Below, piece after piece: positions 3,693 to 64,000 of a stretch of DNA of 64,000 nucleotides; the first letter of the stretch is position 1, and every line of letters begins with the position of its first letter. Origin of the DNA: an uncultured Bacilli bacterium (GTDB lineage: Bacteria > Bacillota_I > Bacilli_A > RF39 > UBA660); the NCBI GenBank assembly GCA_947628065.1, contig CANQYK010000001.1, positions 7,372 through 71,371 of the forward strand. Direction: 5' to 3'. A program made the position numbers and the translations under genes. A model generated the notes under the pieces. The model worked only from the letters and a program-made list of their open reading frames with translations, ran no database searches and was not told where the DNA came from.

Positions 3693-4859
3693 ATGAAATC
3701 TGTTGGTATTATTGCAGAATACAATCCATTTCATAATGGACATCTTTACCATTTAAATGAGGTAAAAAAGATGTTTCCTGATTCTGTTATTGTTTTAATA
3801 TTGGGTGGTAATTTTACAGAACGTGGGGATCTATCGATTTTAAACAAATGGGAAAAAACAGAAATCGCACTACACTTTGGAGTGGACTTAGTTGTCTTAC
3901 TCCCCTTCCCTTATGCGACAGCATCTAGTGATATCTTTGCGGAAGGTGCGATTGAATTATGTCATGAATTAGGGGTTTCCGATCTTGTTTTTGGTAGTGA
4001 AACAGATGATATAAAAGGTATGGAATTACTTGTTGATACCCAATTACACCACCCTGATTTTAATGCTTTGGTACAAGTCTATTTACGAATGGGTAAGAAT
4101 TATCCAACGGCTCTATCACTTGCTTTAAAAGAGTTAACCGGCTTATCCTATAGTCTTCCAAATGATTTATTAGGAATTAGTTACATAAAAGCAATAAAAA
4201 AGAATCATTATAATATCAAAGCCCATACTATTAAAAGAGAGAACAATTATCATGATAAAACATTACAAGATAACATATCCAGTGCGACAAGTATTAGAGA
4301 AGCCCTATTAAAGAAAGAAGATATAACAAATCAAGTACCATCTTTTGTTCTTCCTTATTTAAAAAAAGAAAGAAAAACGATCAATGATTACTTCCCTTAT
4401 TTAAAATATAAAATTTTAACCGAAGAAAACTTAGAAGATTATCCTTTTATTGATAGTGGTATGAAAAAGAAACTAAAAAAAGAAATTGATTCTGTAGATA
4501 CGATAGATGAGTTAATTCATCATATAAAAAGCAAAAATACAACTTACAATAAACTTTCCCGAATGCTTTTATATTTGTTATGTGGCTATACCAAAAAAAG
4601 GCAAGAAAAAGAGCAAGCAATTACCTATATTCGTCTTCTTGGTTTTAATAAAAAAGGACAACGCTATTTAAAGGAGAAAAAGAAAGAAATAAAACTTCCA
4701 ATTATTAGTAAATTTACAAGAGAACAAGAAAGTATTTTAAATTTTGAATACATAACAACAAAAATTTATGCCCTTGTTCTTCCTTATGAGGAAGGAAAAA
4801 AATTGATCGAAATGGAGTATAAAAGAGCTCCAATACGAAAGGATGATGAAAATGATTAA
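3693..4859 (+). CDS. tmcAL: tRNA(Met) cytidine acetate ligase (YlbM/UPF0348 nucleotidyltransferase)
   Basis: The N-terminus IIAEYNPFHNGHLYHL carries the HxGH nucleotidyltransferase motif. The 388-aa length is typical of TmcAL. Confidence 0.75.
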   Translation: MKSVGIIAEYNPFHNGHLYHLNEVKKMFPDSVIVLILGGNFTERGDLSILNKWEKTEIALHFGVDLVVLLPFPYATASSDIFAEGAIELCHELGVSDLVFGSETDDIKGMELLVDTQLHHPDFNALVQVYLRMGKNYPTALSLALKELTGLSYSLPNDLLGISYIKAIKKNHYNIKAHTIKRENNYHDKTLQDNISSATSIREALLKKEDITNQVPSFVLPYLKKERKTINDYFPYLKYKILTEENLEDYPFIDSGMKKKLKKEIDSVDTIDELIHHIKSKNTTYNKLSRMLLYLLCGYTKKRQEKEQAITYIRLLGFNKKGQRYLKEKKKEIKLPIISKFTREQESILNFEYITTKIYALVLPYEEGKKLIEMEYKRAPIRKDDEND

Positions 4860-5541
4860 AACAAAAAAACAAGGATTATTAATTGTTATTTCTTCCCCTA
4901 GTGGTGGAGGAAAAGGAAGTGTCATTAAAGAATTATTAAAACGAGATCCCAATCGGTGGCTATCGGTTTCTACAACAAGTAGAAAAATAAGAGAGAATGA
5001 TATTCCGGGCGTTACGTATAATTTTGTAACAAAGGAAGAGTTTGAACAAAAAATAGAAGAAGGTTATTTCTTAGAATACACAAACTATGTTGGAAATTAT
5101 TATGGTACTCCAAAAGAGTTTATTGCTGATAAATTAGAAGAAGGAAGAGACGTTATTTTAGAGATTGAAATTGAAGGAGCATCTAACATTAAAAAGTTAA
5201 TACCAGAAGCCCTATTTATCTTTATTATGCCACCTTCTTTAAAAATATTAAAAGAACGACTTGAAAAACGAGGAACGGATTCCAAAGAAAAAATATTAGA
5301 ACGGTTCCAAACGGCTTATAAAGAGATTAATGAAGTTAGTAAATATAATTATGTTGTTGTAAATGACGATTTAAATCTAGCCGTTGATAAGGTAGAAGCA
5401 ATACTAATGGCAGAGCGTCTTCGGGTTGATAGAATTGAAGAGGTCTTTTTGGATACGGTAGAAGAAGATATTCATGAAGAATTACTCCCTGATAAAGAAT
5501 TACCAAACATTGATATCAAAGACAAAATAAAAGAGCAATAA
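4852..5541 (+). CDS. gmk: guanylate kinase
   Basis: A P-loop (ISSPSGGGKG) and downstream YYGTP are present. The ORF opens at 4843, but ATG 4852 has better RBS spacing (AAGGA plus 8 nt). Confidence 0.9.
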   Translation: MIKTKKQGLLIVISSPSGGGKGSVIKELLKRDPNRWLSVSTTSRKIRENDIPGVTYNFVTKEEFEQKIEEGYFLEYTNYVGNYYGTPKEFIADKLEEGRDVILEIEIEGASNIKKLIPEALFIFIMPPSLKILKERLEKRGTDSKEKILERFQTAYKEINEVSKYNYVVVNDDLNLAVDKVEAILMAERLRVDRIEEVFLDTVEEDIHEELLPDKELPNIDIKDKIKEQ

Positions 5542-8568: not shown

Positions 8569-8654
8569 TCTTTTTCCTCCCTTTCGCAAACAGATATCAT
8601 TATACTATAATAGTGCGTTTGTTGTAAAGAAAAAAATTAGAATGAACTAATTTT

Positions 8655-9473
8655 TTATTTTTGACAATTCGGACAGTAATACGTACCACGTCCTCCTACT
8701 TTTATTTTTTTAATTTTTCCCTTACAAATTGGACAAATTCCATCTTTCTTTCCATGAACCGATAATTCATTTTGAAACCTTCCGTGAACACCTTCACTAG
8801 AGGTAAAACTTTTAATGGTAGTACCTCCCATCGTAATTGCCTTGTCTAATACTTCTTTAGTATAAAAAATGATAGATTCTAATTCGCATCTTTTCATGTT
8901 TTTTGCTTTCCTTAATGGAGAAATATGACTTAAGAATAAAATCTCATCATCATAGATATTACCAATTCCTGCAATAATACTTTGATCAAGTAATACGGTT
9001 TTAATTGGTAAGGTTTTATTTTTAAAACGATTTCTTAAATAGGATACCGTTAATCTTTCATCGTTATACTCGTATCCTAATAGTGATAAAGGTGGTAGCT
9101 CATATATTTCATTCTTTGGTAACAACATCATTTTACCAAACTTTCTTACATCATGAAATCGTAGTTCCATTCCATCATCCAAAAGGAAGATAACATGTTC
9201 GTGTTTTTCTCTTTTTGTACCCTTTTCCCGAAAGAAAAACTTTCCTTCCATTCTTAGATGCACCAAAAGTGCCTTTGATGTAAGATAGAAAACAAGCCAT
9301 TTTCCACGGGTTGTAATCTTTTCTATTTTCTGATTCTTTATCTCTTTTATAAAAGCATCTTTATCCCCCATGATAATAGAGTCCCAATAAACATCACAGG
9401 ACTTAATTTCTTTTCCAATGAGCCTATTCTCAAGTGTTTTCGCAACCGTTACAACTTCTGGTTTTTCTGGCAT
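8655..9473 (-). CDS. mutM: formamidopyrimidine-DNA glycosylase
   Basis: The N-terminus is MPEKPEV, and the C-terminus has the zinc finger CPICKGKIKKIKVGGRGTYYCPNCQ. The protein is 272 aa. Confidence 0.85.
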   Translation of the reverse strand: MPEKPEVVTVAKTLENRLIGKEIKSCDVYWDSIIMGDKDAFIKEIKNQKIEKITTRGKWLVFYLTSKALLVHLRMEGKFFFREKGTKREKHEHVIFLLDDGMELRFHDVRKFGKMMLLPKNEIYELPPLSLLGYEYNDERLTVSYLRNRFKNKTLPIKTVLLDQSIIAGIGNIYDDEILFLSHISPLRKAKNMKRCELESIIFYTKEVLDKAITMGGTTIKSFTSSEGVHGRFQNELSVHGKKDGICPICKGKIKKIKVGGRGTYYCPNCQK

Positions 9474-9490: not shown

Positions 9491-12109
9491 TTATTTTGCT
9501 TCATACCAATTTTTTCCTTTCTCAATGTCAACTTTCAAAGGAACACTTAAAGATACAACATGTTCCATTTTCTCTTTTACTAAAGCTTCTAGTTCTTCTA
9601 ATTCCTCTTGATAGACATTAAAGACTAATTCATCGTGTACTTGAATTAACATTTTACTTCTCATATTACGACGTTTCATCTCTTGATATAACTCTACCAT
9701 TGCTTTCTTTAAAATATCCGCTGCACTACCTTGTACTGGCGTATTCAGTGCCATTCTCTCTCCACTTGATCGAACCATATAATTTTTACTAGCAAGTTCT
9801 GGTATTACTCTTCTTCTATTCATGATTGTTGTAACATACCCATTTTGATAAGCCTCTCTTTTTTCTTTGTCCATGTATTCTTTGATACCAGGGTATGTTT
9901 CTAAATAATTATTAATAAATTGTTTTGCTTCACTTACATCAATGTTTAAATCCTCACTAAGACCAAAACTACTAATCCCATATAAAATACCAAAATTAAC
10001 TGCTTTTGCCGTTCTTCTCATGCCCTTATCCACCTCTTCCATTGGAACATGGAAAATATCGGATGCGGTTTGACTATGAATGTCTTCATCTTTTAAAAAG
10101 GCTTGTTGTAAGTTGGTAGCATTTGATAAATGAGCAAAGATTCGTAATTCTACTTGACTATAATCGGAACTTAATAACAGAGAATCTTCTTCTGGTATAA
10201 AAGCTTTTCGTACCAATCTTGAAAAATCGGTTCGAATGGGTATATTTTGAAGATTTGGTTTACTACTGGATAGTCTTCCTGTTCTTGTTAAACATTGGTT
10301 AAAGATTGTATGAATCTTTCCATCTTCTCTTATTTCATCTAAAAGCCCTACAGCATAGTTTGTATAGATTTTAGCAAGATTTCGGTATTCTAATACATTA
10401 TCAACAATGGGATGGAAAAGATGTATTTTATCTAAGATTTCTTTGCTCGTAGAATAACTCATATCCCCTTTCTTTCTTTTTTTCGGATATGGGAGTTCTA
10501 GTGTTACAAAAAGGACATCAGCAAGCTGTTTTGGAGATAATATATTAAAAGTACACCCTGCTTGTTCATAAATTACTTTCTCCATCTCTTGCATCTTCTC
10601 TTCTAATTCTGTTTTAAGATTCAATAAATAATTGCGATCTACTCTTATTCCTGTTATTTCCATATCCGCAAGAACAAAAGCCAAAGGCATCTCAATATTA
10701 GAAAACAAATCCATCTCACCCCACTCTTCTACTTCTTTTAATAACAATTCTCTTGTCTGATAGATAAAGTCACTTTTTTTAATGGTTTGTTCTTTTGTTA
10801 CTAAGGAATCAACTTCTTTTCTTCTTCTTTCTGTACCATACGTATCTTCATAACTTTCACAGTCATACTCTAATTGGCTCATAAGAAGGGTAATATCATC
10901 ACTTAATTTATAATCAAGTAGATAGGTTGCAATCATCGCATCATACTCACAATTTTTTAATGAAATACCATAATGATGAAGTAAAATAATAGCTTTTTTT
11001 ACATCATAGGTATATTTTATGGTATCGTTTTCAAATAACTCTTTGTGCTTTAATAACTCTTCTTTTTCAAAATATAAAACACCACTTTCATTCGCAAAAG
11101 ATGCCCCTAATATTTCACTTTTACTATAAGTATAACCATCAATTTCCAAATAAAAGGAATAAGGTTTATTTTTATCAAAATGAGAAAAGTCTACTTCTTC
11201 TCGTTTTTCATAGCTACGTCTTGTAACCGATAGATTATCTTCTTTTTGTTCTTTTATTTTTTTAAGAAGGGATTTAAATTCTAATTCTTCTAATATTTTA
11301 ATATATTCTTCCTTTTTCATTCCATTATAAATACAGTCTTCCAAAGAAAATGGAATGGGAACGGCACGGTATATTGTTGCAAGATCATAACTCATATAAG
11401 CTTTTTCTTTGTCTCGTTCTAGTTTTTCTTGTGTTTTGGGACTTAATTCATCCAAATGTTGATATAAGCTATCAAGTGTTTGGTATTTACTTAATAGTTT
11501 AATAGCAGTTACTTCCCCTATTCCTGTAACGCCTGGAATGTTATCACTAGAATCCCCCATTAAAGCTTTTAAATCAATCATATGAATAGGAGTAACACCA
11601 TAAGTTTTTTTAAATTCTTCTTCATCAAAACGAATGGATCCTTTTTGTTTTAAGAGTTTCACATCTACTTCTTTACTGATTAATTGTAATAAATCTTTAT
11701 CACTTGAGATAATCGTTGCGATAAATTCATCTTCTTCATCTACCATTTTAGAAAGAGTTCCAATAATATCATCTGCTTCATAATTTTCAATCTCAAAGTA
11801 TTTAATACCCATCGCATCAAGTACTTCTTTTGCCTTTGGAAATTGATCTTTTAACTCTTGTGGCATCTCTTTCCTTCCTGCTTTATAATCATCGTATTTC
11901 TCATGTCGAAAGGTTTTTCCTTTGTCAAAAGCAACCATAATATAACTAGGATTTTCTTCTTCAATAATTTTATTCATCATATTAATAAAACCATACAAAG
12001 CATTGGTTGGAAAACCAGAACTATTTTTCATAATAACGCCATTATAGCTTGTTGCATAAAAGCTTCGAAACAATAAGTTATTTCCATCTACTAATATAAT
12101 TTTTTTCAT
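9491..12109 (-). CDS. polA: DNA polymerase I
   Basis: This 872-aa protein has a 5'-nuclease N-terminus (ILVDGNNLLFRSFYA), polymerase motifs DYSQVELRIFAH and QVHDELVF, and RRTAKAVNFGILYG. Confidence 0.95.
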   Translation of the reverse strand: MKKIILVDGNNLLFRSFYATSYNGVIMKNSSGFPTNALYGFINMMNKIIEEENPSYIMVAFDKGKTFRHEKYDDYKAGRKEMPQELKDQFPKAKEVLDAMGIKYFEIENYEADDIIGTLSKMVDEEDEFIATIISSDKDLLQLISKEVDVKLLKQKGSIRFDEEEFKKTYGVTPIHMIDLKALMGDSSDNIPGVTGIGEVTAIKLLSKYQTLDSLYQHLDELSPKTQEKLERDKEKAYMSYDLATIYRAVPIPFSLEDCIYNGMKKEEYIKILEELEFKSLLKKIKEQKEDNLSVTRRSYEKREEVDFSHFDKNKPYSFYLEIDGYTYSKSEILGASFANESGVLYFEKEELLKHKELFENDTIKYTYDVKKAIILLHHYGISLKNCEYDAMIATYLLDYKLSDDITLLMSQLEYDCESYEDTYGTERRRKEVDSLVTKEQTIKKSDFIYQTRELLLKEVEEWGEMDLFSNIEMPLAFVLADMEITGIRVDRNYLLNLKTELEEKMQEMEKVIYEQAGCTFNILSPKQLADVLFVTLELPYPKKRKKGDMSYSTSKEILDKIHLFHPIVDNVLEYRNLAKIYTNYAVGLLDEIREDGKIHTIFNQCLTRTGRLSSSKPNLQNIPIRTDFSRLVRKAFIPEEDSLLLSSDYSQVELRIFAHLSNATNLQQAFLKDEDIHSQTASDIFHVPMEEVDKGMRRTAKAVNFGILYGISSFGLSEDLNIDVSEAKQFINNYLETYPGIKEYMDKEKREAYQNGYVTTIMNRRRVIPELASKNYMVRSSGERMALNTPVQGSAADILKKAMVELYQEMKRRNMRSKMLIQVHDELVFNVYQEELEELEALVKEKMEHVVSLSVPLKVDIEKGKNWYEAK

Positions 12110-12386
12110 CGTATCACTCTTCTTTCTTCTTTTATTATAGCAAGAATTTAAAAACTTTCAAAGAAAAAAGGTGGAAAAACACACCTTATCTTATTCAAAA
12201 ACAAAAGGATGTAAATGTCAACATAAAAATTTAAAAAAATGTCAAAGTAAAAATCTTATAGTTTAACCTGCCGGTGGCTTTCCTTCTTTTATGAAAAAGA
12301 AGGAAAACAAGAAACCAGGAAGGTTTGTAGTTCATCTCGCCGATGGGCTTTCTTTCTTATAAGAAAGAAACAAAGAATTTTTAATA

Positions 12387-13151
12387 TTATTCATTATATT
12401 CATTACTTCTAGAATCACTATCTACTATTTTATCTTTTATTCTATATGAATTACCAGTTATTCTTATAATATGCGAATAATGTAGTAATCTATCTAAAAC
12501 AGCACTAGCTAGAGTATTATCACTAAAAACTTCTCCCCATCTTGAAAAGGGCATATTAGTAGTTACTATTGTTGATTTTGTCATATATCTTTTTGCTATC
12601 AATTGAAAGAATAAATTAGATCCTTGATGATCTACCGGTAAGTATCCTATTTCATCAATTATTAAAACTTTATATTGTGCTAGATGTTGAAGTTGTTTAT
12701 CTAATCTATTTTCTTTTTGTGCCTTATTTAATTTTTGCATTAAATTATGACAAGTAATAAAATATACACTATTTCTATGCTTAGCTGCTTCTATTCCTAA
12801 AGCAACAGCTAAGTGTGTTTTTCCTACTCCAGAATTACCTATAAATATTATATTTTCATGTTCATTTATAAAACCTAAATTACTTAATTCTCTTATTTGA
12901 TTTTCACTGACGGATGGTTGAAAGGAAAAATCATAATCATCTAAAGTTTTCCTAAAAGGAAAATTAGCAGCTTTGATGATACCTTCAGCAGCACGTTCAT
13001 CTTTAAAATTAATTTCGCAACCTAATAAATAATTTAAACTATCACTTAAAGGTGGCATCTCTTTGTTATGTTTATGTATATAATCTGGCAGTATTTCTTT
13101 TACTTTTTCTAATTCTAATAAATCCAATTTTTCATTTAATTCTTCTATCAT
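12387..13151 (-). CDS. istB: IS21-family helper ATPase IstB
   Basis: Walker A is GNSGVGKTHLA and Walker B is LIIDEIGY. The 254-aa protein overlaps the end of istA. Confidence 0.9.
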   Translation of the reverse strand: MIEELNEKLDLLELEKVKEILPDYIHKHNKEMPPLSDSLNYLLGCEINFKDERAAEGIIKAANFPFRKTLDDYDFSFQPSVSENQIRELSNLGFINEHENIIFIGNSGVGKTHLAVALGIEAAKHRNSVYFITCHNLMQKLNKAQKENRLDKQLQHLAQYKVLIIDEIGYLPVDHQGSNLFFQLIAKRYMTKSTIVTTNMPFSRWGEVFSDNTLASAVLDRLLHYSHIIRITGNSYRIKDKIVDSDSRSNEYNE

Positions 13152-14388
13152 TTTGATTTTCTCCTTTATCTATATATATTCCATCTAAAGAGTATAAATT
13201 TTTATTAATATATTCCATTAATTCTTTTTCTGTTTTATCATTGAAACTACTATGTTTTAATATATCTATATAATCTTTTTCTTTATAGTTATATTTACTA
13301 TTAGTATTTTTTTCATATGAATGAATCAATTTTGAGTTATAATATAAGTAGATGAATTTATCATCTTCTGATACAGTTATTGATTTTCCTACATACTGTA
13401 TTGGTACAGAATATTTAATTCCTTTATATTTAATCATTGATTCATTAGATACTTTATATATTTTTGACTGATTACAATAAGTTTCTAATAATTCATAGGT
13501 TACTGGAATTAGATATTCTTTTTCTTTTTCGAATAAGACTATTGGTATTTCATTTGTTGCTTGTGATTTTTCTTCATAATTTAAATTATAATTTAAATCT
13601 GATACTATTTTCTTAAGTTCTTTTAAGTCTTTAAATTCGAAATCAAATGCTTTAAGTCTATCCATAATTTTAGCTAAAGTTTCCACTTTTCCTTTGGTTT
13701 TTGGCCTATATGGTCTACAAGTTATTATTTTGAATCCAGCATCTTTTGAAAATTGCAAAGTTTTCGTATTAATTACAACATCTGTGTAACTACTTTTTGT
13801 ATGGTCTACTATTGTTTTCATATTATCAAACAATATTTCTCTTGTTGTTCCCCCGAAATATTTAAATGCTTCGGTTAAGCTTTTAAATAAAGTTATTTGA
13901 GTTTGATCTGTTGTTAACTTTATAAATTTAAATCTTGAATTTCCTAAAACGATTAGAAAAATACTTACTACATATTCATTTCCGTATATATCGTGTAATT
14001 TTAATTTTTCTTTCCAATCAACTTGCGCTTGATATCCTTTTATAGTTTCAAACCTAATTGTTAAATTAGAAATTATTTTTTCTTTTTTAGAAGCTACATA
14101 TTTTCTAACTATTCCATATTTTCCCATATAATCATATTTTTCTTTTAAGAGATAATATATTCCTGTTGCTGGAATATTATTATTTTCTATTTTCTCATCA
14201 ATAATTTGTTTATATGGATCTAATATAGAATGATATTCCCTCTTTTTTCTTTCTCTTTCATATTTTTTTGGGTTTAATCTTCTATCAATTGTTTCCCAAC
14301 AACAATTGAATTGTCTTGCCAAAGCTGATTTATTCACCTTTACTCCTCCTTCTTTTTCTAATAACTTTCTTGTTATTTCTTGTCTCAT
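13132..14388 (-). CDS. istA: IS21-family transposase IstA
   Basis: This 418-aa protein has an N-terminal HTH-like region and an integrase-core-like middle (QVDWKE...). It is followed by an overlapping istB. Confidence 0.85.
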   Translation of the reverse strand: MRQEITRKLLEKEGGVKVNKSALARQFNCCWETIDRRLNPKKYERERKKREYHSILDPYKQIIDEKIENNNIPATGIYYLLKEKYDYMGKYGIVRKYVASKKEKIISNLTIRFETIKGYQAQVDWKEKLKLHDIYGNEYVVSIFLIVLGNSRFKFIKLTTDQTQITLFKSLTEAFKYFGGTTREILFDNMKTIVDHTKSSYTDVVINTKTLQFSKDAGFKIITCRPYRPKTKGKVETLAKIMDRLKAFDFEFKDLKELKKIVSDLNYNLNYEEKSQATNEIPIVLFEKEKEYLIPVTYELLETYCNQSKIYKVSNESMIKYKGIKYSVPIQYVGKSITVSEDDKFIYLYYNSKLIHSYEKNTNSKYNYKEKDYIDILKHSSFNDKTEKELMEYINKNLYSLDGIYIDKGENQNDRRIK

Positions 14389-14725
14389 ACTTTTATCATC
14401 TCCTTCTATTTATGAGATAACAAAAGTATATCATACCCACTAAAAAACTGATAAAAAGTCTCAGTTTTTTACTTTAACATTTTTATCAGTTTCTATTTTA
14501 ACATTTATATCTTTTTTTCAGGGAGTTTATGAAAATTTTTTTCGCGTGCTATTATTTTCCTTATTTCTCCCCACTTTCTTCGCCTTTTTACTTTGATTTC
14601 TCAAAATGGTACTTTTTGATTGATTTCCGGACGTACTTTTTCACCTATTTTTACCTTATTTTTCAACGGTTTACGAAAAACTGTCCGTAGCTAAGCTTGT
14701 TACCTTAATTTAGATAATAATTGCG

Positions 14726-14760
14726 GGGTGCCCGGAAGACGTTGCCTTCCGGGGGCACCT
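14726..14760 (-). terminator. GC-rich hairpin immediately downstream of the 14776..16404 gene, with no clean U-tract
   Basis: GGTGCCCGGAAG-acgttgc-CTTCCGGG(G)GCACC forms a stem of about 12 bp with one bulge. On the sense strand it is followed by GCAATTATTATC rather than a U-run, and it is very GC-rich for this genome. Confidence 0.45.
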
Positions 14761-14775
14761 CTTACGTTAACGACT

Positions 14776-16404
14776 TTAAAGCCCAAACTCAAATGGATCA
14801 TCCACCGCTCCTGTACCTTTTAGCAATTGGATATTAGATACTAGATATACGACTGGGCGGACGCCGAACGTATTGCGCACGAGGTAGCCGTTTTCGACAC
14901 CCCCCGTGTTGCTCACAGCGAACGCACGGTACGAACGGTCGGAGTACGGGGCGATTGTCCATTGATATTTATTATTAACAAAGAGCCAGTCATTATTCTT
15001 ACAATCGGGTATCCCTCCATCACTACTGTACCAGTGATACAAATCTTTTGCTAAACAGGTTACTCTATTTGCTGTTGCTCCTCCACTTGTCGCATATCCA
15101 TAATCGCTAGGGTACATTAATCCTACTTTCCCTGTCCAGTTTGTTTTTCTTGGATGCGCACTACTACTATATACTGTTTCGCTTCTTTCAAACTTATAAT
15201 ATGCTTCTGTTAATACTCCGCTTGATGTACTATTTCCACCCAAGTACCATTTCGCATCTCCTATCATTGCTTGTGCCTCCGGTAACAGTCCTGTTTCTTC
15301 AAAATTACAAGTTGTTGATGCATTACTACTTCCACTTGGACAACTTCCACTTTGTCGATTCCAGTATAAACTTCCTTTTCCTCCTGTTGCATTTGCTTCT
15401 TCATCATATCCGGGATTCAGTATCATCATCAATCTTGAATCGGTCCAATCATTACTTCCGCGATCATCCTCTGATGACCCTGTCCCACTTGGCTTATTAT
15501 CAAATGATATAGTATTATCTGTTCCTACTGGTAATGGATCTTTTCTTATTAATTTAATTCTTTTTTCCCTCTTTCCTTCTCCATCATCTACTGTCTCAAT
15601 TCCAATAATCCTCCATCCTGCTTCTTCATTATTGAATGTTACATAATTATTTGGGTCAGCTCCTATATATCTATAATCTTTTAGTTCTTCTTCACTCCAA
15701 TCACTTTGTTGTGTTCCTCTACTACTTGCATGATTAAACACATACATCTTATTCTCTTTTGCATTTGCATCATCTTTACTATAATTTATATCATAATCTT
15801 GTACATCCTCACTATTGGTATAATTTGCAAGTAACTTTTCTACTGCTGATGTTGATTGCTTGTTACTATATCCTTTTACCAATACTTTCATCTTATATAT
15901 TGTTCCTTGCGCACTATTATCTGCTGTATCACTTAACCACAATCTTAAGGTATAAACTATCTTTTTATCATCTTCACTTGTTCCTAAAGTATCTTCATCC
16001 TTTACTATGAATGTTCCATTTCCAACTTCCTTCATTACTTTGATTCCAGAATCATATCCTTTATCACTTGTTAACTTATATTTTACAAAATTCGTATCTA
16101 ATGTATTATTATCCGTATCTTCTTGGAACGATATCATATAATATGCCGTAATGTCTCCACTATTTGTTATGGTAAAGGTATAAGGCTTACTTTCTAATCC
16201 TTCTTCATCACTTAAAGTACCAGTATTTTCTAAATTAATAGTATCTCCTTCTTCAAAATCTATTTTTAAGGTACCAGATTCGATACTTAAAGTTTTATCA
16301 CCTTTTAATGTTTTCGAAAATAAAGCAAACGTTGTTCCTAGTAATGATAAAACACTAAAACTAACGGATATTACAATAATTGCAATTAACTTTTTCTTAC
16401 TCAT
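14776..16404 (-). CDS. secreted surface protein with a TasA/camelysin-like N-terminal domain and a C-terminal lectin-like (DUF6273/DUF1566-like) domain
   Basis: The signal region LLGTTFALFSKTLKGDKTLSIESGTLKIDF resembles the SipW-type TasA N-terminus (GGGTWAAFND...ASGTLDL). The C-terminal half is paralogous to 60248..64000: DYRYIGADPNNYVTFN, WRIIG, RIKLIR, SRLMMILNPGY, LYWNRQSG, GLMYPSDYGYATSGG, and VRPVVYL followed by GTG..DPF. Confidence 0.7.
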   Translation of the reverse strand: MSKKKLIAIIVISVSFSVLSLLGTTFALFSKTLKGDKTLSIESGTLKIDFEEGDTINLENTGTLSDEEGLESKPYTFTITNSGDITAYYMISFQEDTDNNTLDTNFVKYKLTSDKGYDSGIKVMKEVGNGTFIVKDEDTLGTSEDDKKIVYTLRLWLSDTADNSAQGTIYKMKVLVKGYSNKQSTSAVEKLLANYTNSEDVQDYDINYSKDDANAKENKMYVFNHASSRGTQQSDWSEEELKDYRYIGADPNNYVTFNNEEAGWRIIGIETVDDGEGKREKRIKLIRKDPLPVGTDNTISFDNKPSGTGSSEDDRGSNDWTDSRLMMILNPGYDEEANATGGKGSLYWNRQSGSCPSGSSNASTTCNFEETGLLPEAQAMIGDAKWYLGGNSTSSGVLTEAYYKFERSETVYSSSAHPRKTNWTGKVGLMYPSDYGYATSGGATANRVTCLAKDLYHWYSSDGGIPDCKNNDWLFVNNKYQWTIAPYSDRSYRAFAVSNTGGVENGYLVRNTFGVRPVVYLVSNIQLLKGTGAVDDPFEFGL

Positions 16405-16489
16405 CTTACATCACCTAAAAAAGAATAGAATTAACCTATTCTATCCTTTCTTCCACGCTTAAAAGAATTTAGATAACTATCTAAAGCTA

Positions 16490-16499
16490 CCCCCCCCCC
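16490..16499 (-). repeat. C10 (G10 on the coding strand) homopolymer in the upstream region of 14776..16404
   Basis: I counted ten consecutive C residues, 86 to 95 nt upstream of the start codon at 16404. On the sense strand the tract lies between a -35-like TTTACG and a -10-like GATAGT. Confidence 0.9.
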
Positions 16500-16700
16500 G
16501 TAAACAATTTGTAAACTTTACAACATTTGACATTTTGATCAACTACCTTTCTTTTTTGTAGATTTGGAAATTATTTGATATCACTTTTTCCTTTTTATTT
16601 AAGATAATATTACTACCTTTCCTATATCCATATTACAATACTTTCGTCTATTTTGCAAGATAGAAATATCTTTTTCATTAATGTCGAATGAAAAAAAGAG

Positions 16701-38847: not shown

Positions 38848-38876
38848 ACTATAGCAGATATTAAAAAATGTGTCAA
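38848..38876 (-). promoter_or_regulatory. sigma-A-type promoter of comEA-comEC
   Basis: The minus strand reads TTGACA (38871..38876), a 17-nt spacer, then TATAGT (38848..38853). Confidence 0.55.
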
Positions 38877-38877
38877 A

Positions 38878-38981
38878 AGGGGAATTTTGCAAATTCCGGC
38901 ACTTTTTTGGGGGAAAATTGCAAATTCCCCGGGGGAAAATGCAAAATTCAGCCGAAAATGGGGCTGAATTTGCAAAATTCA
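38878..38981. promoter_or_regulatory. array of four 15-nt imperfect palindromes (GAATTTTGCAAATTC-like, each flanked by a G/C run) directly upstream of the comEA -35
   Basis: The copies lie at about 38882..38896, 38913..38927, 38936..38950 and 38966..38980. The two distal copies can also pair with each other as a hairpin downstream of the SEDS gene. Confidence 0.6.
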
Positions 38982-38998
38982 CTTTTTTTTACTTTTTT

Positions 38999-40171
38999 TC
39001 ATTTTTTTCGTTTTTTGGGGGTTTCGTTCCGAATTCCTGTCTCTATTTTTACCCGTTGTACAAAGGTTAAAGCGACCATCAAGCAAAGTGTAAAGCTTCC
39101 TCCATAACTAATAAAAGGAAGAGGAATTCCAGTAATTGGAATAAGTCCTAAAATACCTAAGAGATTAATACTGATATGAAGAAAGAGATAGAAAAAGATT
39201 CCATAACAAATCATCGCACCTCGGTTCGTATAACTTTTCTTTCCAATAAAATAAATACGAGATAAAACAACAATATAACAAAGAATTAAAAGAATACCTG
39301 TTACAAGACCTAATTCTTCTACTACAATAGCAAAGATAAAATCTGTATATGGCTCTGGCAAATACAAATATTTTTGAGTGGAATTACCAAGACCAACCCC
39401 TGTTAATCCCCCATTGTTAATCGCAATATAACCATTACATACTTGATTCCCTTCATCTAGTAATTTCTCACATGGATTTCCGAAAGAAGAAAGACGTTCT
39501 TTCTGTCTTGCATGAAGAAGTTCAAAACCACAAAGTTGTAGTGTCCCAAGAAGAGCAAGAGCTATTAAACCACCAAAAAAGACAATTTTAATTTTTCGTA
39601 TTAAAGTAATGGGAACGAGAAAGAAAACAAACAAAACAATAACAGTATAAATAAGAGCGGTTCCATAATCATTTTGTAATACAATTAAAATAGCAGGCAA
39701 AGCACCAATACAAAGAGGAAGCGCCGCAACAAACCAATGATCAAGATGCTTCTCATATACTTCATAGAAGCGTGCCATCCAAACAATAATAATTATTTTG
39801 GCAAACTCACTTGGTTGGAACATAAAAGGACCAATGGGAAACCAACTTTTCGCATCATTGGTTACTTTTCCATAAACAAGAAGCAAAAATAAGATAACGG
39901 TAATAGCAATCAATAAAAGCGATGAAAACATTCCATATGCTTTGGTATTAAACCGAATCATAACAGAACACAAAAGAAAACTAATAACTAAAAAAATACC
40001 TTGTTTAAAAAAATATCCATAAAAACTTTTTCCGTTCATATAAGCCGTTACATTACTAGCCGATAATACCATAATAAGTCCAAAGATAAAAAGAGCGGCC
40101 GTTAAAACAAAAAGAATTTTATCCATATGTTTGATCATTTGGGCAGTTTTCTTCAAAGTATCACGCTCCAT
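38999..40171 (-). CDS. SEDS-family peptidoglycan glycosyltransferase (FtsW/RodA/SpoVE)
   Basis: This 390-aa protein has about 10 TM segments. Characteristic segments include FQPSEFAKI, NDYGTAL and LPFISYGGS. Confidence 0.85.
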   Translation of the reverse strand: MERDTLKKTAQMIKHMDKILFVLTAALFIFGLIMVLSASNVTAYMNGKSFYGYFFKQGIFLVISFLLCSVMIRFNTKAYGMFSSLLLIAITVILFLLLVYGKVTNDAKSWFPIGPFMFQPSEFAKIIIIVWMARFYEVYEKHLDHWFVAALPLCIGALPAILIVLQNDYGTALIYTVIVLFVFFLVPITLIRKIKIVFFGGLIALALLGTLQLCGFELLHARQKERLSSFGNPCEKLLDEGNQVCNGYIAINNGGLTGVGLGNSTQKYLYLPEPYTDFIFAIVVEELGLVTGILLILCYIVVLSRIYFIGKKSYTNRGAMICYGIFFYLFLHISINLLGILGLIPITGIPLPFISYGGSFTLCLMVALTFVQRVKIETGIRNETPKKRKK

Positions 40172-44510: not shown

Positions 44511-44914
44511 ATAAACATTTTATCAAAAATTACAAAATTAGACAAGGCAAAGAAATTTAAGTTGTTTTGGCCTTCCTTTTGATATAAAAAAATGAATCTG
44601 TAAATAAAACAACTTCATTTTTTATCGGAATTAAAATCAGAATATTAACGCTATTTTTAAAGTGATTATAAAACCTACTAAAATAATGGTAGTGATCACT
44701 ACACCTAAAATTAAACCAGCGATTGCCATTGGTAATCCTCGTTCTTTTGTTTTTCTAATTTGAATGATACTGATTATTGAAAAAATGATTGCTAAAAGAC
44801 TAAGAATTAGTAACATAATTACCTCCTTTATGTTAAAAAGAATATCATATTATTTCAAAATGTCAAGAAAAATTAAAAGGCCATAGAAAATTCTTCTTTT
44901 CTATGGCTTCTTCC
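44511..44914. repeat. copy 1 of a segmental direct duplication (shorter copy)
   Basis: This copy is near-collinear with 45242..45759. The shared content includes the terminator hairpin CCATAGAAAA...TTTTCTATGG, a small gene and a downstream hairpin. Relative to copy 2 it lacks roughly 100 bp inside the small gene. Confidence 0.8.
44637..44816 (-). CDS. truncated paralog (59 aa) of the DUF4190-like small membrane protein
   Basis: My translation is MLLILSLLAIIFSIISIIQIRKTKERGLPMAIAGLILGVVITTIILVGFIITLKIALIF. It matches the C-terminal two thirds of 45387..45659 and has a GGAGG RBS. It is not in the ORF track. Confidence 0.5.
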   Translation of the reverse strand: MLLILSLLAIIFSIISIIQIRKTKERGLPMAIAGLILGVVITTIILVGFIITLKIALIF

Positions 44915-44915
44915 G

Positions 44916-45238
44916 GAGTTTGGCAGTTGACACAAACTAAAATATAGCGTAAGCCCTTTTATAATAAGGAGTTCATATGTCAAATTTTCATCATTTTATT
45001 GTTGTATATCCGTTGTATATAATTTTTTTGATGTTACCCCTTTTTATAAATTCTATATTATGATACACTTATTACATGAAGTAAAATAATTGTAGAAATC
45101 CTTATAAAAGCTTACGATTATTGGTATTTACATATCTAAAAAATTTTAAACTTTTGAAAATAAGGTTGGATATACAACAAACAAAAAATGAGCTAGCCCT
45201 TGTTCTATATAGGTTTGCTCATTTTTACTGCCAAAGTC
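44916..45238. other. roughly 320-bp unique spacer between the duplicated copies, bounded by 12-nt inverted repeats (MITE-like)
   Basis: GAGTTTGGCAGT (44916..44927) matches the reverse complement of ACTGCCAAAGTC (45227..45238) at 11 of 12 positions. An inner inverted repeat pairs GTTGTATATCC (45001..45011) with GGATATACAAC (45168..45178). The spacer contains an RBS-preceded 28-codon hydrophobic ORF at 44977. Confidence 0.4.
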
Positions 45239-45241
45239 AAG

Positions 45242-45759
45242 ATAAACATTTTATCAAAAATAACAAATTTAGACAAGGCAAAGAAATTTGAGTTGTTTTG
45301 CCCTTTCTTTTATATAAAAAAATGAATCTGTGAATAAAACAAATTCATTTTTTTATCAAAACTAAAATCAGAATATTAACTTTATTTTAAAGGGAAAAGA
45401 TTATAAGGTATATTAAAAGAATGGTAGTGATCAATACTCCTAAAATTAAACCAGCGATTGCTATTGGTAATCCTCGTTCTTTTGTTTTTCTAATTTGAAT
45501 GATACTGATTATTGAAAAAATGATTGTTAAAAGACTAAGAATTCCTAAAAAATTCAGTTTTAATGAAACAATTCCTAAAATTAAACTAACTATGGACATT
45601 TTGTTAATGGGTTTCTTTTCGGTAACGTTACTTTCATTGGTTTTTAAAGTCTTTTGCATAATTACCTCCTTTTCTTTAAAAGAATATCATATTATTTCAA
45701 AATGTCAAGAAAAATTAAAAAGTCATAGAAAATATTTCTTCTTTTCTATGACTTCTTCC
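45242..45759. repeat. copy 2 of the segmental direct duplication (longer copy)
   Basis: See copy 1 (44511..44914). Confidence 0.8.
45387..45659 (-). CDS. small membrane protein (DUF4190-like)
   Basis: This 90-aa protein has hydrophobic segments flanking QIRKTKERGLPIAIAGLILG, and an AGGAGG RBS. Confidence 0.6.
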   Translation of the reverse strand: MQKTLKTNESNVTEKKPINKMSIVSLILGIVSLKLNFLGILSLLTIIFSIISIIQIRKTKERGLPIAIAGLILGVLITTILLIYLIIFSL

Positions 45760-50983: not shown

Positions 50984-53900
50984 CTATTTTGCTTTTCCTT
51001 CTAACGTTTGTTTTTTCTCTTGTTCCATTACATACTTGTTAAGTGCTTCTACCATATTGGAGTAACCTAACGCATTCATATTATCGGCAATAAAATTATC
51101 GTGTAAATATCCTCTTTTCTCTTCTATTGTTTTCTCTTTGTTTCGCTCTGCAAAATGATTCTCTCCAAAATCCCATACGGTATAAGATGCTTTAAATTCA
51201 TCAAAATTCTTATTCTTACTTGCTTCTACAAAACTTTTCGCAGCATCATAGAAAGATCCACCATGTTGTAAAATCCAATTTTCAATACCAGAGCCTCCCA
51301 TTCCTCCTTGTGTTTCATCACTTCGTTTTGGTTTATAAATATGATTTTCTTTAAAGAATTGTTTGGCAAGTAATATATTTCCTACTACATACTGATACTT
51401 TTCTTCATCCTGACTTTTTATCGTATCAAGCCGATCTTTCAAACAAGCATCGGTAGAATAAGCTATTTTATTTGTTTTAACTGCAAAGGAAATATCTACA
51501 TCAAGCGAAGTTCCATCTTCTGTTTCTACTCCTTTATAACGAAAATCACCACCATTTGTCTCAACCATTTGTTCTGTTTTATATTTGGTAAGTTCTTCTC
51601 TTAATGTACCTTTAAATATCTTATATTTTTCTTCGTCTTGCATTAGCTCTCTATCAACGCGCAGTAGGAAATCAAAATCCCCTTCCCCTAATGAATTGGT
51701 AGATCTTCCCGTTGATCCTGTATCGATTAATTCAACAGAAGAAGGTGTTAAGTCTCCATCGATTTCTCTTTTTAAGGTCAGAGAAGATCCTGTTTTCTCA
51801 TTATAAACCGATAAAGCATTTTCTATCATTGCATCTATTTTTTCTCTTTTTTCTTTCGTTTTTTCTTCGTTTTCTTTTAAATGTCCAACAATTTCTTCTA
51901 TTTCCTCATTTACAAGATGACTTGAAAAATGATATTCTTTGGTACCATAATAAGAAAGTCCATCCATTTTCTCTCTTAAATCTTGATACTCTTCTTCGGT
52001 ATAAATAAGATTTCCACTAAAATCAACCACTGGAATATAAAGACCATTTCGAGCAAGTTCAAACTTTATGGTATTTAAATCATCATAACGTCCAGCCTCA
52101 CTTTCAAGGTAACAAACATTCCCCGATACGTCATATGGTTGGTCTTTGTTAATGGTTAGATTTTTCTTATATAAAATATAGTCTACATCGGTAAAAGAAA
52201 ATCCTGTTCGGATACCATAATGATTATCATAACCAGTTTGAAACATTTCAAGTTTCTTGGGATCGTATTTTGTAACCACCTCTTCTTGATCTTTTTCTCT
52301 TGTTATAACAAGATTGGGATTATCCTTTCGTAATACAACATAAACATTTCCAAAACCAAAACCAGTTGGTGTTCCCTTTATCGCATCATATATATTTTTA
52401 TTCTCTTTTATCCTCGTAAAGTCAACATCCAAAGGTGTTGTATCCGATTCACTGCGATTGGTAAAAGTTGCCAAATACTCTTTGCTATAATTTCCTGTAT
52501 TAAGAGAACTTCCTAATACTTTAAAGTCCCCAATTGACCGTAGAAAGTCTCCTTCTTCCAATTGAAATTTTTTTGTTTTTAATTCTTCTGCTCTTTCTTT
52601 ATTTCTTCGGTTCGCATCCTTTATCGTATTTTTGATATCTTCTTTCATACTAGCATAAGAAGGGTATCCTGCAAAATAAGCAAAACTTCGAACAATTCGG
52701 TCTTTTAAATCATAACGACTGGTCACTTCCATTTTTTGTTTATAATAAGATAATTTTTCTTCCAAGCTTTCTTCCTTTCTTGCATCTTTTTTCCCTTTTT
52801 CCGTATTTTGATAAAGTGTTTCTAGATGTGATAAGAACAAAGTAAGTGTAGATTTTTCTTCCTTACTAAGCGTTGATACTTGTTGTTCTCCCCTTTCTAT
52901 TTTCTCAAGTAAGGTATTTCCTTCTTCTAGATTGGAAAGATAAGAAAGCAAATCTCTACTTCCTGATTTTACAGCATTTCTTATCATATCATTATAAAGA
53001 ATCATAAACCGGTAATCCGTAGGACTTCCATTTTTTAAACCAACATGTGGAAGATAAGAATTTTGTAACATTGGTGCCATTCTACTGTGATCCGTAAAAT
53101 TAAACTCTTCTAAGTTTGGGTATAGTATTTGAAAACAACGAAACATTTTCCCAACCATGGGCAAATTATTTTTTATAAATACTTCTTCCATTTGTTCTAG
53201 ACTATCCATAGGAGCATCTGATTTTAGTAGTTGTTTGGCGAAAGAGTTACAGAAGGTATTCATCTCACTCGCATTGGATAGGGTAATTTGTTTTAAAATA
53301 GTAACCAAATCGTCCATCTTATCAACATCAACTTCATAGTTTTCCTCTTTAAGATAATCATTAAAAACATCTTCCAACTCCATATTTAAAACTCTATCAT
53401 AGATCGATACTGCTTTTAGATATTTTGTATTCCTAAGAACAAAATTGGTATCACTTTGAAATAATTTCGTAAGACCCAAAAATTGAGATGGAAAACCATA
53501 AAGGATATTGGTGTGATCAAATTGTTCTAATAAATCCATATTCTTCTCAAAGTCTTCTAAGGTAAGTTCTTTTTTATAAAATTTTTCTTTTATAGCATCT
53601 TTTAGATGCTCCTTTACAAAAAGATTGGGATAACGATTTTTAAAGTGGGTTGGCATACTACTATCATACTTCATTCCCTTATCGATTGCATTTTTTATTT
53701 TCTCATCTATTTGTGTTAGTAGTTCTTCTTTGGTTAAATTTTCTCCTTCTATTCTTTCTATTTTAGCTCCTGTTATATAGCTTTCATAAAGAAGTAAAAA
53801 ATCAAAACCTTCTTTTTGTCCAAAAACATCATAAATAGAGTTTAACAACCCATTTGGTAGTTCATCAAAAACAACACGAAGATCTTTTTCTCTTAATAAG

Positions 53901-63200: not shown

Positions 63201-64000
63201 TCCTGTTCTACTCCATTAAAAGTTGCAGCAAGAGAACAAGCTTTTTCTGTTTCATCAATTACATTGTTATTGGCATCAAACTTTACAGTATAATCTACTT
63301 TCTCTTTTGTTGTTTGTGCATAATAGGTCGTTTCATTGTTTGATTCATTTACTGTTAAAGATTCCTTACTTCCTACTATTTTGGTATGATCATCTGTTTT
63401 TGTACTATAACCTATAATTGTTGGTGTATTTGAATTAATGGATATCGTTGGTGTTTCAATATTACATGATGTTTGTTGTTTTGTTGTATTATACGCAACG
63501 GGTAACACACATGTTTTTTCTGTCGCATCAATAACATTACCATTTTCATTAAAACTTACTTGATAAGTAATGGCATTCTTATAACTAATGGAATAATACG
63601 TTGGTGCTTCTTCTTTTGATAAAGTAATCTTTGCTCCTACTGCTATTCCTGCTGTATCATCTTTGTTTTCACTCCATCCTACTTTCGTATATCCTTCTAA
63701 TACCGTAATATCTGGGGCATCTACGGTACAACTAGTCTCTTGTATTGCCCCATTATAAACAGCTGATATCTCACAACTATCACTTTCTTTTCCTATCGCT
63801 GTTACTCCTATTCCTTGTTTGGAATAATTTACTTCTCTATTGACTGCATCTTTTCTTGTTATTGCATAATAAGTCTTTCCATTATTATTCTCATTTACTT
63901 CTAATTCACTTTTATGATCGACTTCTTTTTCTGTTGCTTGTTGATTTTGACTAAAGCCAATGATAGTTGGTGTATTTGGATTAACGGATATCGTTGGAGT
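60248..64000 (-). CDS. very large repeat-containing surface protein, partial; the N-terminus lies beyond the right window edge
   Basis: By my hand translation the reading frame stays open upstream of the track's GTG at 63508 through to 64000 (...DITVLEGYTKVGWSENKDDTAGIAVGAKITLSKEEAPTYYSISYKNAITYQVSFNENGNVIDATEKTCVLPVAYN...). It has tandem repeats resembling Listeria-Bacteroides (Flg_new) repeats, each with a conserved Cys pair. These are followed by the lectin-like domain paralogous to 14776..16404, an Ig-like segment, and a Gly/Pro-rich C-terminus. Confidence 0.7.
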   Translation of the reverse strand, partial: TPTISVNPNTPTIIGFSQNQQATEKEVDHKSELEVNENNNGKTYYAITRKDAVNREVNYSKQGIGVTAIGKESDSCEISAVYNGAIQETSCTVDAPDITVLEGYTKVGWSENKDDTAGIAVGAKITLSKEEAPTYYSISYKNAITYQVSFNENGNVIDATEKTCVLPVAYNTTKQQTSCNIETPTISINSNTPTIIGYSTKTDDHTKIVGSKESLTVNESNNETTYYAQTTKEKVDYTVKFDANNNVIDETEKACSLAATFNGVEQETTCTVITPTITAPANTKVIVGYHQDKASHIAEVGSNQELIVSAENHNKTYYAITKSEAITRNVNYSMQGLGVTAIGKEKDSCTIGETYNNEKQDTSCMVDAPDITVSEGYTKVGWNENKEETTGVAVGANITLSKEEAPTYYSISYKNEITYKVNFDENGNTIDATEKTCTIGKAYNTTPQGTTCNIETPTISVNANTPTIIGYSTTAEDHTKTVGSKENLIVDSNINGKTYYAQTTAPAITHTITFNKNGAKSQTDSNNVAQTAETVTRSCTRDATFNGVEQAATCSVTSPTIVGTDITPTVTGYSDAAGNHTNGWSHNSPKEISGNATWYAQTTKAAVTKNVSYQKTTGVTSIGKESDSCTIAAIYNNNNGKAQDISCTVQAPTIKAASGYEAIGWNTSNVATTGTKPGENLTLTDASTTYYALVKKLAPTAGENAVTSLLDFYTNEASLQDYQASTETQQKNMYVFTHTAGEQQSNYTSEELTDYRYIGADPNNYVTFNDETWRIIGIFTVEDANGKKEKRIKLIRNEPLNSLNDATYISWDNKPNGTGSSESLYGSNWWGDSRLMMVLNPGYETEQTGVSGSIYWNRQSGKCPLYLNNETTDCNFATTGLTSTSQKMIGNTKWYLSGLSTSETSVSELYQNERGKTVYGVNATNVNATSKEVKKDSIIESIAQPMINAIANTTGGISWTGPVGLMYPSDYGYATSGGTSQTRDFCISMDGSGGPLSWYYTDECKIGDWLFNDEHFNNYYHEWLITQYSGSNDEVLTIDTLGFLTSGNVGDSDNKIVRPSVYLKASTLYKSGDGSQGSPFVFTSDPNVDDEAPVCKLTSSSITTDTYKKGGEGTISIECTDNSGTLKNDLTPDQIGFTYKICENDENEKEKNYDITINLSKTETIENGKRYTFTMNANNSTIWFDHCNEIHFMEIKGGAISDNSNNQNEKSQYEIEVSEYFSGSPGAAAPVCNVATCGGPGGLKPVVPTG

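Follow-up and report, generated by a model that had tools for sequence, protein, structure and literature searches.

A GC-rich patch in a secreted protein gene of an uncultured Bacilli bacterium is very probably the variable region of a cassette-distal diversity-generating retroelement target

The stretch of DNA analysed here (64,000 nt of contig CANQYK010000001.1, from an uncultured Bacilli bacterium; hereafter, the window) carries on its minus strand an open reading frame (ORF) of 542 aa, coding for a secreted protein (14776..16404), near the end of which lies a GC-rich, adenine-poor patch. Downstream of the gene there are a GC-rich stem-loop, an IS21-family insertion sequence (IS) and polA. 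In our assessment the patch is very probably the variable region (VR) of a diversity-generating retroelement (DGR) target gene that lies apart from its cassette, a VR that was once rewritten, or still is, from a template repeat (TR) located elsewhere.

The target gene and its GC-rich terminal segment

We have counted 70 G or C residues among the 110 nt of the patch (14851-14960, 63.6%), the sense (minus) strand having 19 A (17%), 37 C, 33 G and 21 T. The mean GC content of the window is 30.4%, and the 99.9th percentile of its 110-nt stretches is 52.7%. The patch was the 110-nt stretch with the highest GC content of the 64 kb and belonged to the sole cluster with at least 55% GC, which spans 14828-14973; as the only such cluster, it is not a chance fluctuation. 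The third-position GC was 0.76 in the 38 codons around the patch vs. 0.20 in the other 505 codons of the gene, and the adenine fraction was 0.18 vs. 0.40. The patch encodes the peptide WTIAPYSDRSYRAFAVSNTGGVENGYLVRNTFGVRPVV. An initial annotation of this DNA, made from the sequence alone, had reported the same peptide and a composition of about 64% GC and 17% adenine, both in agreement with our counts. It had also stated that the paralog starting at 60248 lacks such a skewed patch, and the VR-equivalent segment of this 1086-aa protein (60248-63508; segment at 60812..60937, minus strand), which we recognised as a paralog of the target by comparison, was indeed only 41% GC, with no patch-like composition. 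The paralog shares the C-terminal module of the target protein and has, in addition, a C-terminal extension and internal 819-nt repeats (62489-63808, 77-82% identical). P0002 and similar homologs have a VR-like segment at the corresponding position.

The target protein is composed of an N-terminal signal or transmembrane helix (residues 1-25), a beta-sandwich domain (~37-180) and a conserved C-terminal module (~240-542; 14779..15687, minus strand). Its AlphaFold2 model had a mean confidence (pLDDT) of 92.7, and in this model the VR forms the last beta-hairpins of the module, with strands at residues 480-487, 493-497, 503-507 and 518-521. The protein belongs to a large family, with more than 4340 homologs in a protein collection clustered at 90% identity and 5199 clusters at 50% identity. 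The family core corresponds to the C-terminal 300 residues, with the consensus RYIG.NPNNYV.FN.E.WRIIGV ... GKVGLMYPSDYGYATSGG ... QWT..P[variable]VRP.VYL.

We have compared the modelled C-terminal module with solved structures using Foldseek. The sole significant match was 9qa6, the immunoglobulin A (IgA) peptidase of Thomasclavelia ramosa (E 1.3e-9), and a model of the domain only matched the same entry with an E-value of 1.5e-7 and a query-normalised template modelling score of 0.52. The N-terminal domain of this peptidase is annotated as DUF6273 (PMC12402451). Five phage proteins named "DUF6273 domain-containing" also matched the window model structurally (E 1.6e-7 to 3.2e-4). At the sequence level, the window protein matched no Pfam family at E <= 1, and thus had no PF19789 (DUF6273) match above the gathering score; this Pfam family was found above its gathering cut-off in the distant DGR targets of loci L077 and L073, and it matched 9 of 90 family members at E <= 0.01. 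Taken together with the models, the C-terminal domain is a predicted DUF6273-like fold. DUF6273 is a published DGR target domain in which the VR occupies the C-terminal end (PMC11792537, PMC10743442). The label of C-type-lectin-like fold given by the initial annotation was not confirmed directly: canonical C-type lectins matched the window model with E > 6 only, and a "lectin-like" label therefore rests on the literature.

The N-terminal domain resembles TasA-type fibre proteins faintly (AbpX, E 0.026), and that of one family member gave a weak match to Peptidase_M73 (camelysin family); other members have a type IV pilin N-terminus instead. The phage collection had no blastn match, nor did IMG/VR contain a protein relative. 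The VR probably serves to modulate the binding of ligands at the surface of the cell.

Just upstream of the VR (14972-15031; ...HWYSSDGGIPDCKNNDWLFVNNKY) there is a second island of low identity with the related locus L001, at 57-73% vs. 90-100% around it. This island is neither GC-rich nor TR-like; diversifying selection on a surface loop may account for it, or else recombination at this patch.

Retroelement cassettes and TR/VR pairs in relatives

The segment bounded by QWT..P and RPVV was scrambled in the first 30 homologs, its flanks being nearly constant. Homologs with 47-50% identity adjoin genes for a RVT_1 reverse transcriptase (RT) and bAvd, as well as a TR. One of them, P0029 (503 aa, 50% identical over the aligned region), is encoded in locus L002, next to a DGR cassette that comprises a 97-nt TR (11855-11951), a RVT_1 gene (12392-13471) and a bAvd gene (13455-13796). 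The only differences between this TR and the VR of P0029 (11342-11438) are 12 mismatches, each at a template adenine.

Scanning of genomes yielded 43 loci, in gut metagenome-assembled genomes (MAGs) labelled as uncultured Bacilli, Clostridium sp. CAG:451, Tenericutes and Erysipelotrichaceae. RT matches were present in six of these loci, five of which had bAvd as well and all six a TR. Tracing of RT homologs (P0130, P0132, P0131 and P0206) led to four more TR types, none of them cognate to the window VR. The relatives gave nine TR types for comparison with this VR.

The differences between VRs and their TRs were concentrated at template adenines. In L002 and L038, the VR differs from its own TR at 12 and 16 adenines, respectively, with no mismatch elsewhere. 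The VR of L041 belongs to a remote target: it shares a contig with the L038 TR, at a distance of ~57 kb, and differs from that TR at 18 positions, again all template adenines. For L077 there were 21 mismatches at adenines and two at other bases. The L090 TR has two VRs (TR and VRs at 4576-4696, 4899-5019 and 11766-11886): the adjacent one shows 18 mismatches, 16 of them at A and two at non-A positions, and the second, in a 726-aa protein ~7 kb off, shows 29, of which 23 are at A and six at non-A positions. The MAG UBG167 contains 10 paralog loci. A single cassette of this family acts on several paralogs at a distance, and the window gene is thus very probably a cassette-distal target.

Two further observations were made on the cassettes. 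L073 encodes a 644-aa DUF6273 protein with two VRs, for which 10 of 11 and 11 of 11 mismatches are at template adenines (VRs and TR at 15657-15735, 16299-16377 and 16556-16634); both VRs fit a TR that closely follows the gene. The only RT seen on this contig is ~7.5 kb away from that TR and adjoins a different one (~9085-9188). The RT frames of L007 (11779-12863) and L038 (11547-12625) are each split in two overlapping tblastn pieces, which points to a decaying, frameshifted RT or else to a fault of the assembly, yet the L038 TR fits two VRs with no non-A mismatches.

Variation was also evident across closely related proteins of a sister lineage of the CAG:451 type (503-aa proteins), in which 53 proteins had 52 distinct VRs and, of the 450 pairs with an identity of 98% or more in the rest of the protein, only one had its VR in common. 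The column entropy in this lineage was 1.57 bits inside the VR vs. 0.09 bits outside.

The TRs of the relatives consist of AAT/AAC codons set in a nearly A-free scaffold. For the confirmed VRs, GC was 0.48-0.56 and A 0.15-0.22, their TRs having GC of 0.40-0.44 and A of 0.32-0.38, in loci with GC of 0.26-0.31. We have set the borders of the window VR from the TR/VR pairs of the relatives, where homology extends from the (A/T)GC CCG or TCG CCT codons to CCAG. The VR so delimited (14853..14952, minus strand; GCC CCG ... CGC CCA G) comprises 33 codons plus 1 nt and encodes APYSDRSYRAFAVSNTGGVENGYLVRNTFGVRP. The patch aligned codon for codon with the VRs of the relatives, and its GC-rich span started and ended at the limits of TR homology, with the same 33-codon architecture as the TRs of L026 and L080. 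The initial annotation had placed the patch at the position where DGR targets carry their variable segment, and the patch does coincide exactly with the TR-homologous segment of the gene in relatives. About 17 of its codons are of the NNY form, as expected from AAY template codons, and the remaining codons are nearly A-free, with A at only two third positions. With an overall GC of 0.65 and A of 0.16, it had the highest GC among all VRs collected. Rewriting of A to N on an adenine-avoiding scaffold explains why A is depleted, why NNY codons occur and why the GC content greatly exceeds that of the genome.

By analogy with the family, the window VR would have originated from a transcribed TR of ~100 nt, carrying AAY codons at ~17 positions in a nearly A-free scaffold. 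A DGR reverse transcriptase, together with bAvd, would copy this transcript, misincorporating at template adenines, and the cDNA would then replace the VR from its 3' end (...CGC CCA G). The sequence of the cognate TR, the binding function and any present activity are inferred. A DGR-type VR at the end of a ligand-binding domain, in a remote or orphaned target, is what the initial annotation had proposed, and both the cassettes of the relatives and their A-restricted TR/VR differences support it.

Flanks of the target gene and other features of the window

The GC-rich stem-loop (14728..14760, minus strand) has a 14-bp stem with a 2-nt bulge and an RNA folding energy of -21.8 kcal/mol (z -2.85), with one of 200 shuffled sequences folding as well. 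It starts 93 nt past the end of the VR and 16 nt past the stop codon, and no T-run lies behind it, so that the GC hairpin without a U-tract described in the initial annotation is present. The stem-loop is conserved only in L001, the closest ortholog as regards the tail, where it is followed by UCGUGUUUU (a short U-run), and the window and L001 sequences part immediately 3' of it. L003 has a different terminator stem and L004 no comparable stem. In BPP-1-class DGRs a hairpin or cruciform just downstream of the VR is known, although it is not universal, and the initial annotation had seen the window hairpin in this light. Its location beyond the stop codon and away from the VR end, its restriction to L001, and the lack of significant structure after the VR of the confirmed DGR target in L002 (z +0.70) speak against such a role, and we do not regard it as a DGR element. 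Most simply, the stem-loop is the stem of the transcription terminator of the target gene.

The IS21-family element (12203..14516, minus strand) contains istA (13132-14388, 418 aa) and istB (12387-13151, 254 aa), the latter with 66-68% DNA identity to annotated IS21-like IstB genes, and is bordered by 62-nt terminal inverted repeats (12203-12264 and 14455-14516, 79% complementarity); the two genes overlap, and no target-site duplication was identified. The element is no part of the DGR target. Its neighbours are the target gene on one side and polA (9491-12109) on the other, and its distance from the hairpin is ~210 nt, as given by the initial annotation.

Upstream of the target gene, positions 16490-16499 hold a run of ten C on the plus strand (G10 in the sense strand), which is the only G/C homopolymer of at least 8 nt in the 64 kb. 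It precedes the ATG by 86-95 nt, and the leader around it is conserved in the paralog P0012 (AAGTTTACAAAWTGT..Gn..). Comparable G tracts were found in L086 (~9821-9831), L087 (~3775-3784) and L025 (~160 nt upstream of the gene), and two samples with 0 mismatches over 11.3 kb differed solely in having a tract of G11 vs. G10. This may reflect phase variation of a promoter or leader, or else an assembly error in a homopolymer. Between it and the ribosome-binding site (~16415-16442, minus strand) there is a small stem (AGAATAG/CTATTCT) followed by T6, also conserved upstream of P0012, which looks like an attenuator or terminator in the leader.

Elsewhere in the window we have noted a 71-nt near-palindrome (38860-39002; arms 75% complementary, 1 nt apart), direct repeat units of 730-840 nt with 86-92% identity (44511-45740) and a 1524-aa ORF of unknown function (50984-55558). 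An Rfam scan of the window returned one tRNA only.

Origin and present state of the variable region

The patch could have arisen independently of any DGR, as a tract acquired from a donor of higher GC by recombination or horizontal transfer, or as a compositional accident of the encoded amino acids. It is compositionally foreign, and no TR is in hand that would prove templating of the window copy. Nevertheless, the tract stops exactly at the TR-homology borders of the relatives, its AT-rich flanks are conserved with low-GC homologs, and all but two of the VR third positions are non-A, with variable codons of the NNY form. Every confirmed VR of the family has the same signature. Moreover, the paralog encodes the same fold at 41% GC, so the amino-acid sequence does not demand a high GC content, and no high-GC donor matching the patch and its flanks was seen. 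We regard a non-DGR origin as extremely improbable. Only marginally less so is the disrupted cassette considered in the initial annotation, in which TR, Avd and RT would once have been directly downstream of the target gene, to be destroyed or displaced by the IS21 insertion. Such a history would suit the short distance between hairpin and element, the divergence of window and L001 right behind the hairpin, and the fact that in some relatives the cassette begins 340-400 nt past the target stop codon. However, the ~300 nt of non-IS DNA between hairpin and polA (~210 nt + ~93 nt) contained no TR tail (3 mismatches allowed), no RT or Avd remnant on either side of the element and no similarity to cassette loci. 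L001, with the same tail and hairpin, had no cassette in the 3.8 kb downstream, and L003, L004 and L086 lie among housekeeping genes, likewise with no cassette. No cassette is present in the 64-kb window, and nothing indicates that one was formerly adjacent to the target gene.

The closest relatives of the window protein (P0009/L001, P0004/L003, P0017/L004-5 and P0012/L086-89; 53-81% identity) had no cassette within up to 10 kb, and their genes sit among housekeeping genes. L003 contains two paralogous targets with different VRs of 37 and 38 codons (168-278 and 8589-8702), 8 kb apart among translation-factor genes.

Several results count against the assignment of the patch to a cassette-distal DGR target. 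An adenine-tolerant scan of both strands of the window recovered the VR itself only, and the best tblastn match in the window to the RT, bAvd and two accessory ORFs of L002 had an E-value of 0.06, in agreement with the initial annotation, which had reported neither TR nor Avd nor RT there. The RT-like match behind this value, at 53.3 kb, is a chance similarity inside the unrelated 1524-aa ORF. When an adenine-tolerant pattern of the middle 48 nt of the VR was run against 185,579 species-representative genomes and IMG/VR, no match was obtained; the pattern also missed the window VR itself, which places the source genome outside this genome collection. The nine TR types of the relatives all failed as cognates of the window VR, the best still leaving 17 non-A mismatches. 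The conserved TR tail CCAGCCGATWAATTTWGGT (CCAG/CCGATWAATTTWGGT) was found neither in the window, within 3 mismatches, nor in viral contigs, and a TR-tail scan of metagenome contigs gave 24 loci, with three known TR types only plus chance matches.

The VRs of the window's own lineage add to these points. Of their 31-49 mutual differences, 7-17 are at third codon positions, and their lengths are 37 or 38 codons. VRs sharing one TR differ at codon positions 1-2 only, never at the third, so that one TR cannot be the current source of every lineage VR. That a very A-rich TR serves all of them is unlikely, since it would need A at many synonymous third positions, a feature seen in none of the nine TRs. 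Window, L001 and L003a have "mutated" codons in common in the 5' half of the VR (TAC..TCG TAC C.T) in spite of genes only 61-84% identical, meaning that this half was inherited rather than rewritten. Finally, identical paralog VRs occurred across up to four samples of the lineage; all of them contain one and the same clone, with 0 mismatches over 7-13 kb, which makes this weak evidence only.

For a VR of a cassette-distal target, being still served by a cassette and being orphaned are about equally probable. Active rewriting, in which a cassette with the cognate TR elsewhere in the same genome would still act on the VR in trans, has in our view a little under an even chance. One cassette with several distant targets is the norm in the family, and the VR is intact and in frame, its GC and third-position GC giving no sign of decay towards AT. 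In addition, the comparison with L001 revealed a divergence island in the VR 3' half (47-67% identical), between a tail of 97-100% identity and the first 30 nt of the 5' half at 93%, the kind of 3'-anchored footprint that partial retrohoming would leave if it took place later than the split from L001. Against this, no cognate TR turned up in any collection searched, the sister paralogs of the lineage cannot all fit one TR, and the closest ortholog in the protein collection is at 81%, too distant for a strain comparison.

That the VR is a fossil, written by a past DGR whose cassette was lost or whose TR diverged and passed on since by ordinary inheritance, comes close to an even chance. The third-position and length differences among lineage VRs would follow from it, including those between L003a and L003b on one contig and between L001 and L004 from one assembly, as would the mutated codons common to diverged genes. 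P0008 and P0015 also have identical VRs, their preceding 300 aa being only 81% identical, and there is a precedent in Treponema denticola, with targets that lack RT or TR (PMC4891356). The strong GC-rich, A-poor signature, undecayed in a 30% GC genome, argues in the other direction, as does the rewriting of the VR 3' half after the split from L001. Identical VRs across samples, stemming from one clone, lend orphaning little, and the source, probably a fragmented MAG, leaves the absence of a cassette beyond demonstration.

Tentatively, and as something possible rather than probable, we would picture gut Bacilli whose genomes are small and low in GC as having a very large paralog family of fibre- or pilus-type surface proteins, with N-termini of the TasA or type IV pilin kind. 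In each genome one cassette would write, in trans, the DUF6273 tips of up to ~10 targets. Loss of the cassette or a change of its TR would leave frozen, heritable VRs, and thus binding-site diversity, that recombination between paralogs shuffles, the window copy being one of them. Expression may, in addition, be switched by the poly-G tract in the leader.

The prototype of these elements is the DGR of Bordetella phage BPP-1, with the Mtd VR/TR, Brt and Avd. As in BPP-1, the relatives of the window gene show A-specific rewriting from TR to VR and have bAvd and RVT_1, the VR lies at the C-terminal end of a ligand-binding domain, and its GC-rich 3' end is where TR homology stops (...CGC CCA G). 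Unlike in BPP-1, the target gene of the window has neither a cassette next to it nor a cognate TR in hand, its product has a DUF6273-like fold, with Mtd not among the Foldseek matches, and the hairpin lies past the stop codon, 93 nt from the VR, instead of directly beyond the VR end.

The chromosomal DGR of Treponema denticola has one core cassette and several distant target paralogs, and some isolates keep VR-bearing targets with no RT or TR, one remote target having been termed "leftover" (PMC4891356). The window similarly holds a target and no cassette, whereas the target fold and host phylum are different and the family is far larger (10 loci in UBG167; 5199 clusters). DUF6273 DGR targets are known from gut phages and prophages, namely the tentaclins (PMC10743442) and those of Faecalibacterium prophages (PMC11792537). 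They share with the window protein the domain type and the location of the VR at the C-terminal end of DUF6273, and the window model matches phage DUF6273 proteins. The phage targets are tail or receptor-binding proteins with the cassette alongside; in contrast, the window gene is cellular, has a TasA-like secretion domain, sits among housekeeping genes and has no IMG/VR matches. The Thomasclavelia ramosa IgA peptidase (9qa6) is the structural match of the C-terminal module and also comes from a gut Bacillota host. Unlike in the window protein, its domain is part of a metallopeptidase; the two are 15-16% identical in sequence, and we found no evidence of a DGR diversifying it.

DGRs with remote and orphan targets are thus already known, as are DUF6273 targets, and this case leaves the knowledge of the DGR mechanism unchanged. 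Less charted are the cellular family of TasA-like and pilin-like carriers and its apparent trail of frozen VRs. Standard DGR finders require RT, TR and VR together. Metagenome surveys themselves state that remote targets are missed (PMC8144416). The case indicates that in a low-GC genome a DGR VR is recognisable by composition alone, even with no cassette on the contig. It adds to the DGR targets a cellular, non-phage family of DUF6273-tipped secreted proteins, and it offers a concrete place to ask how long the diversity written by a retroelement outlasts its writer.

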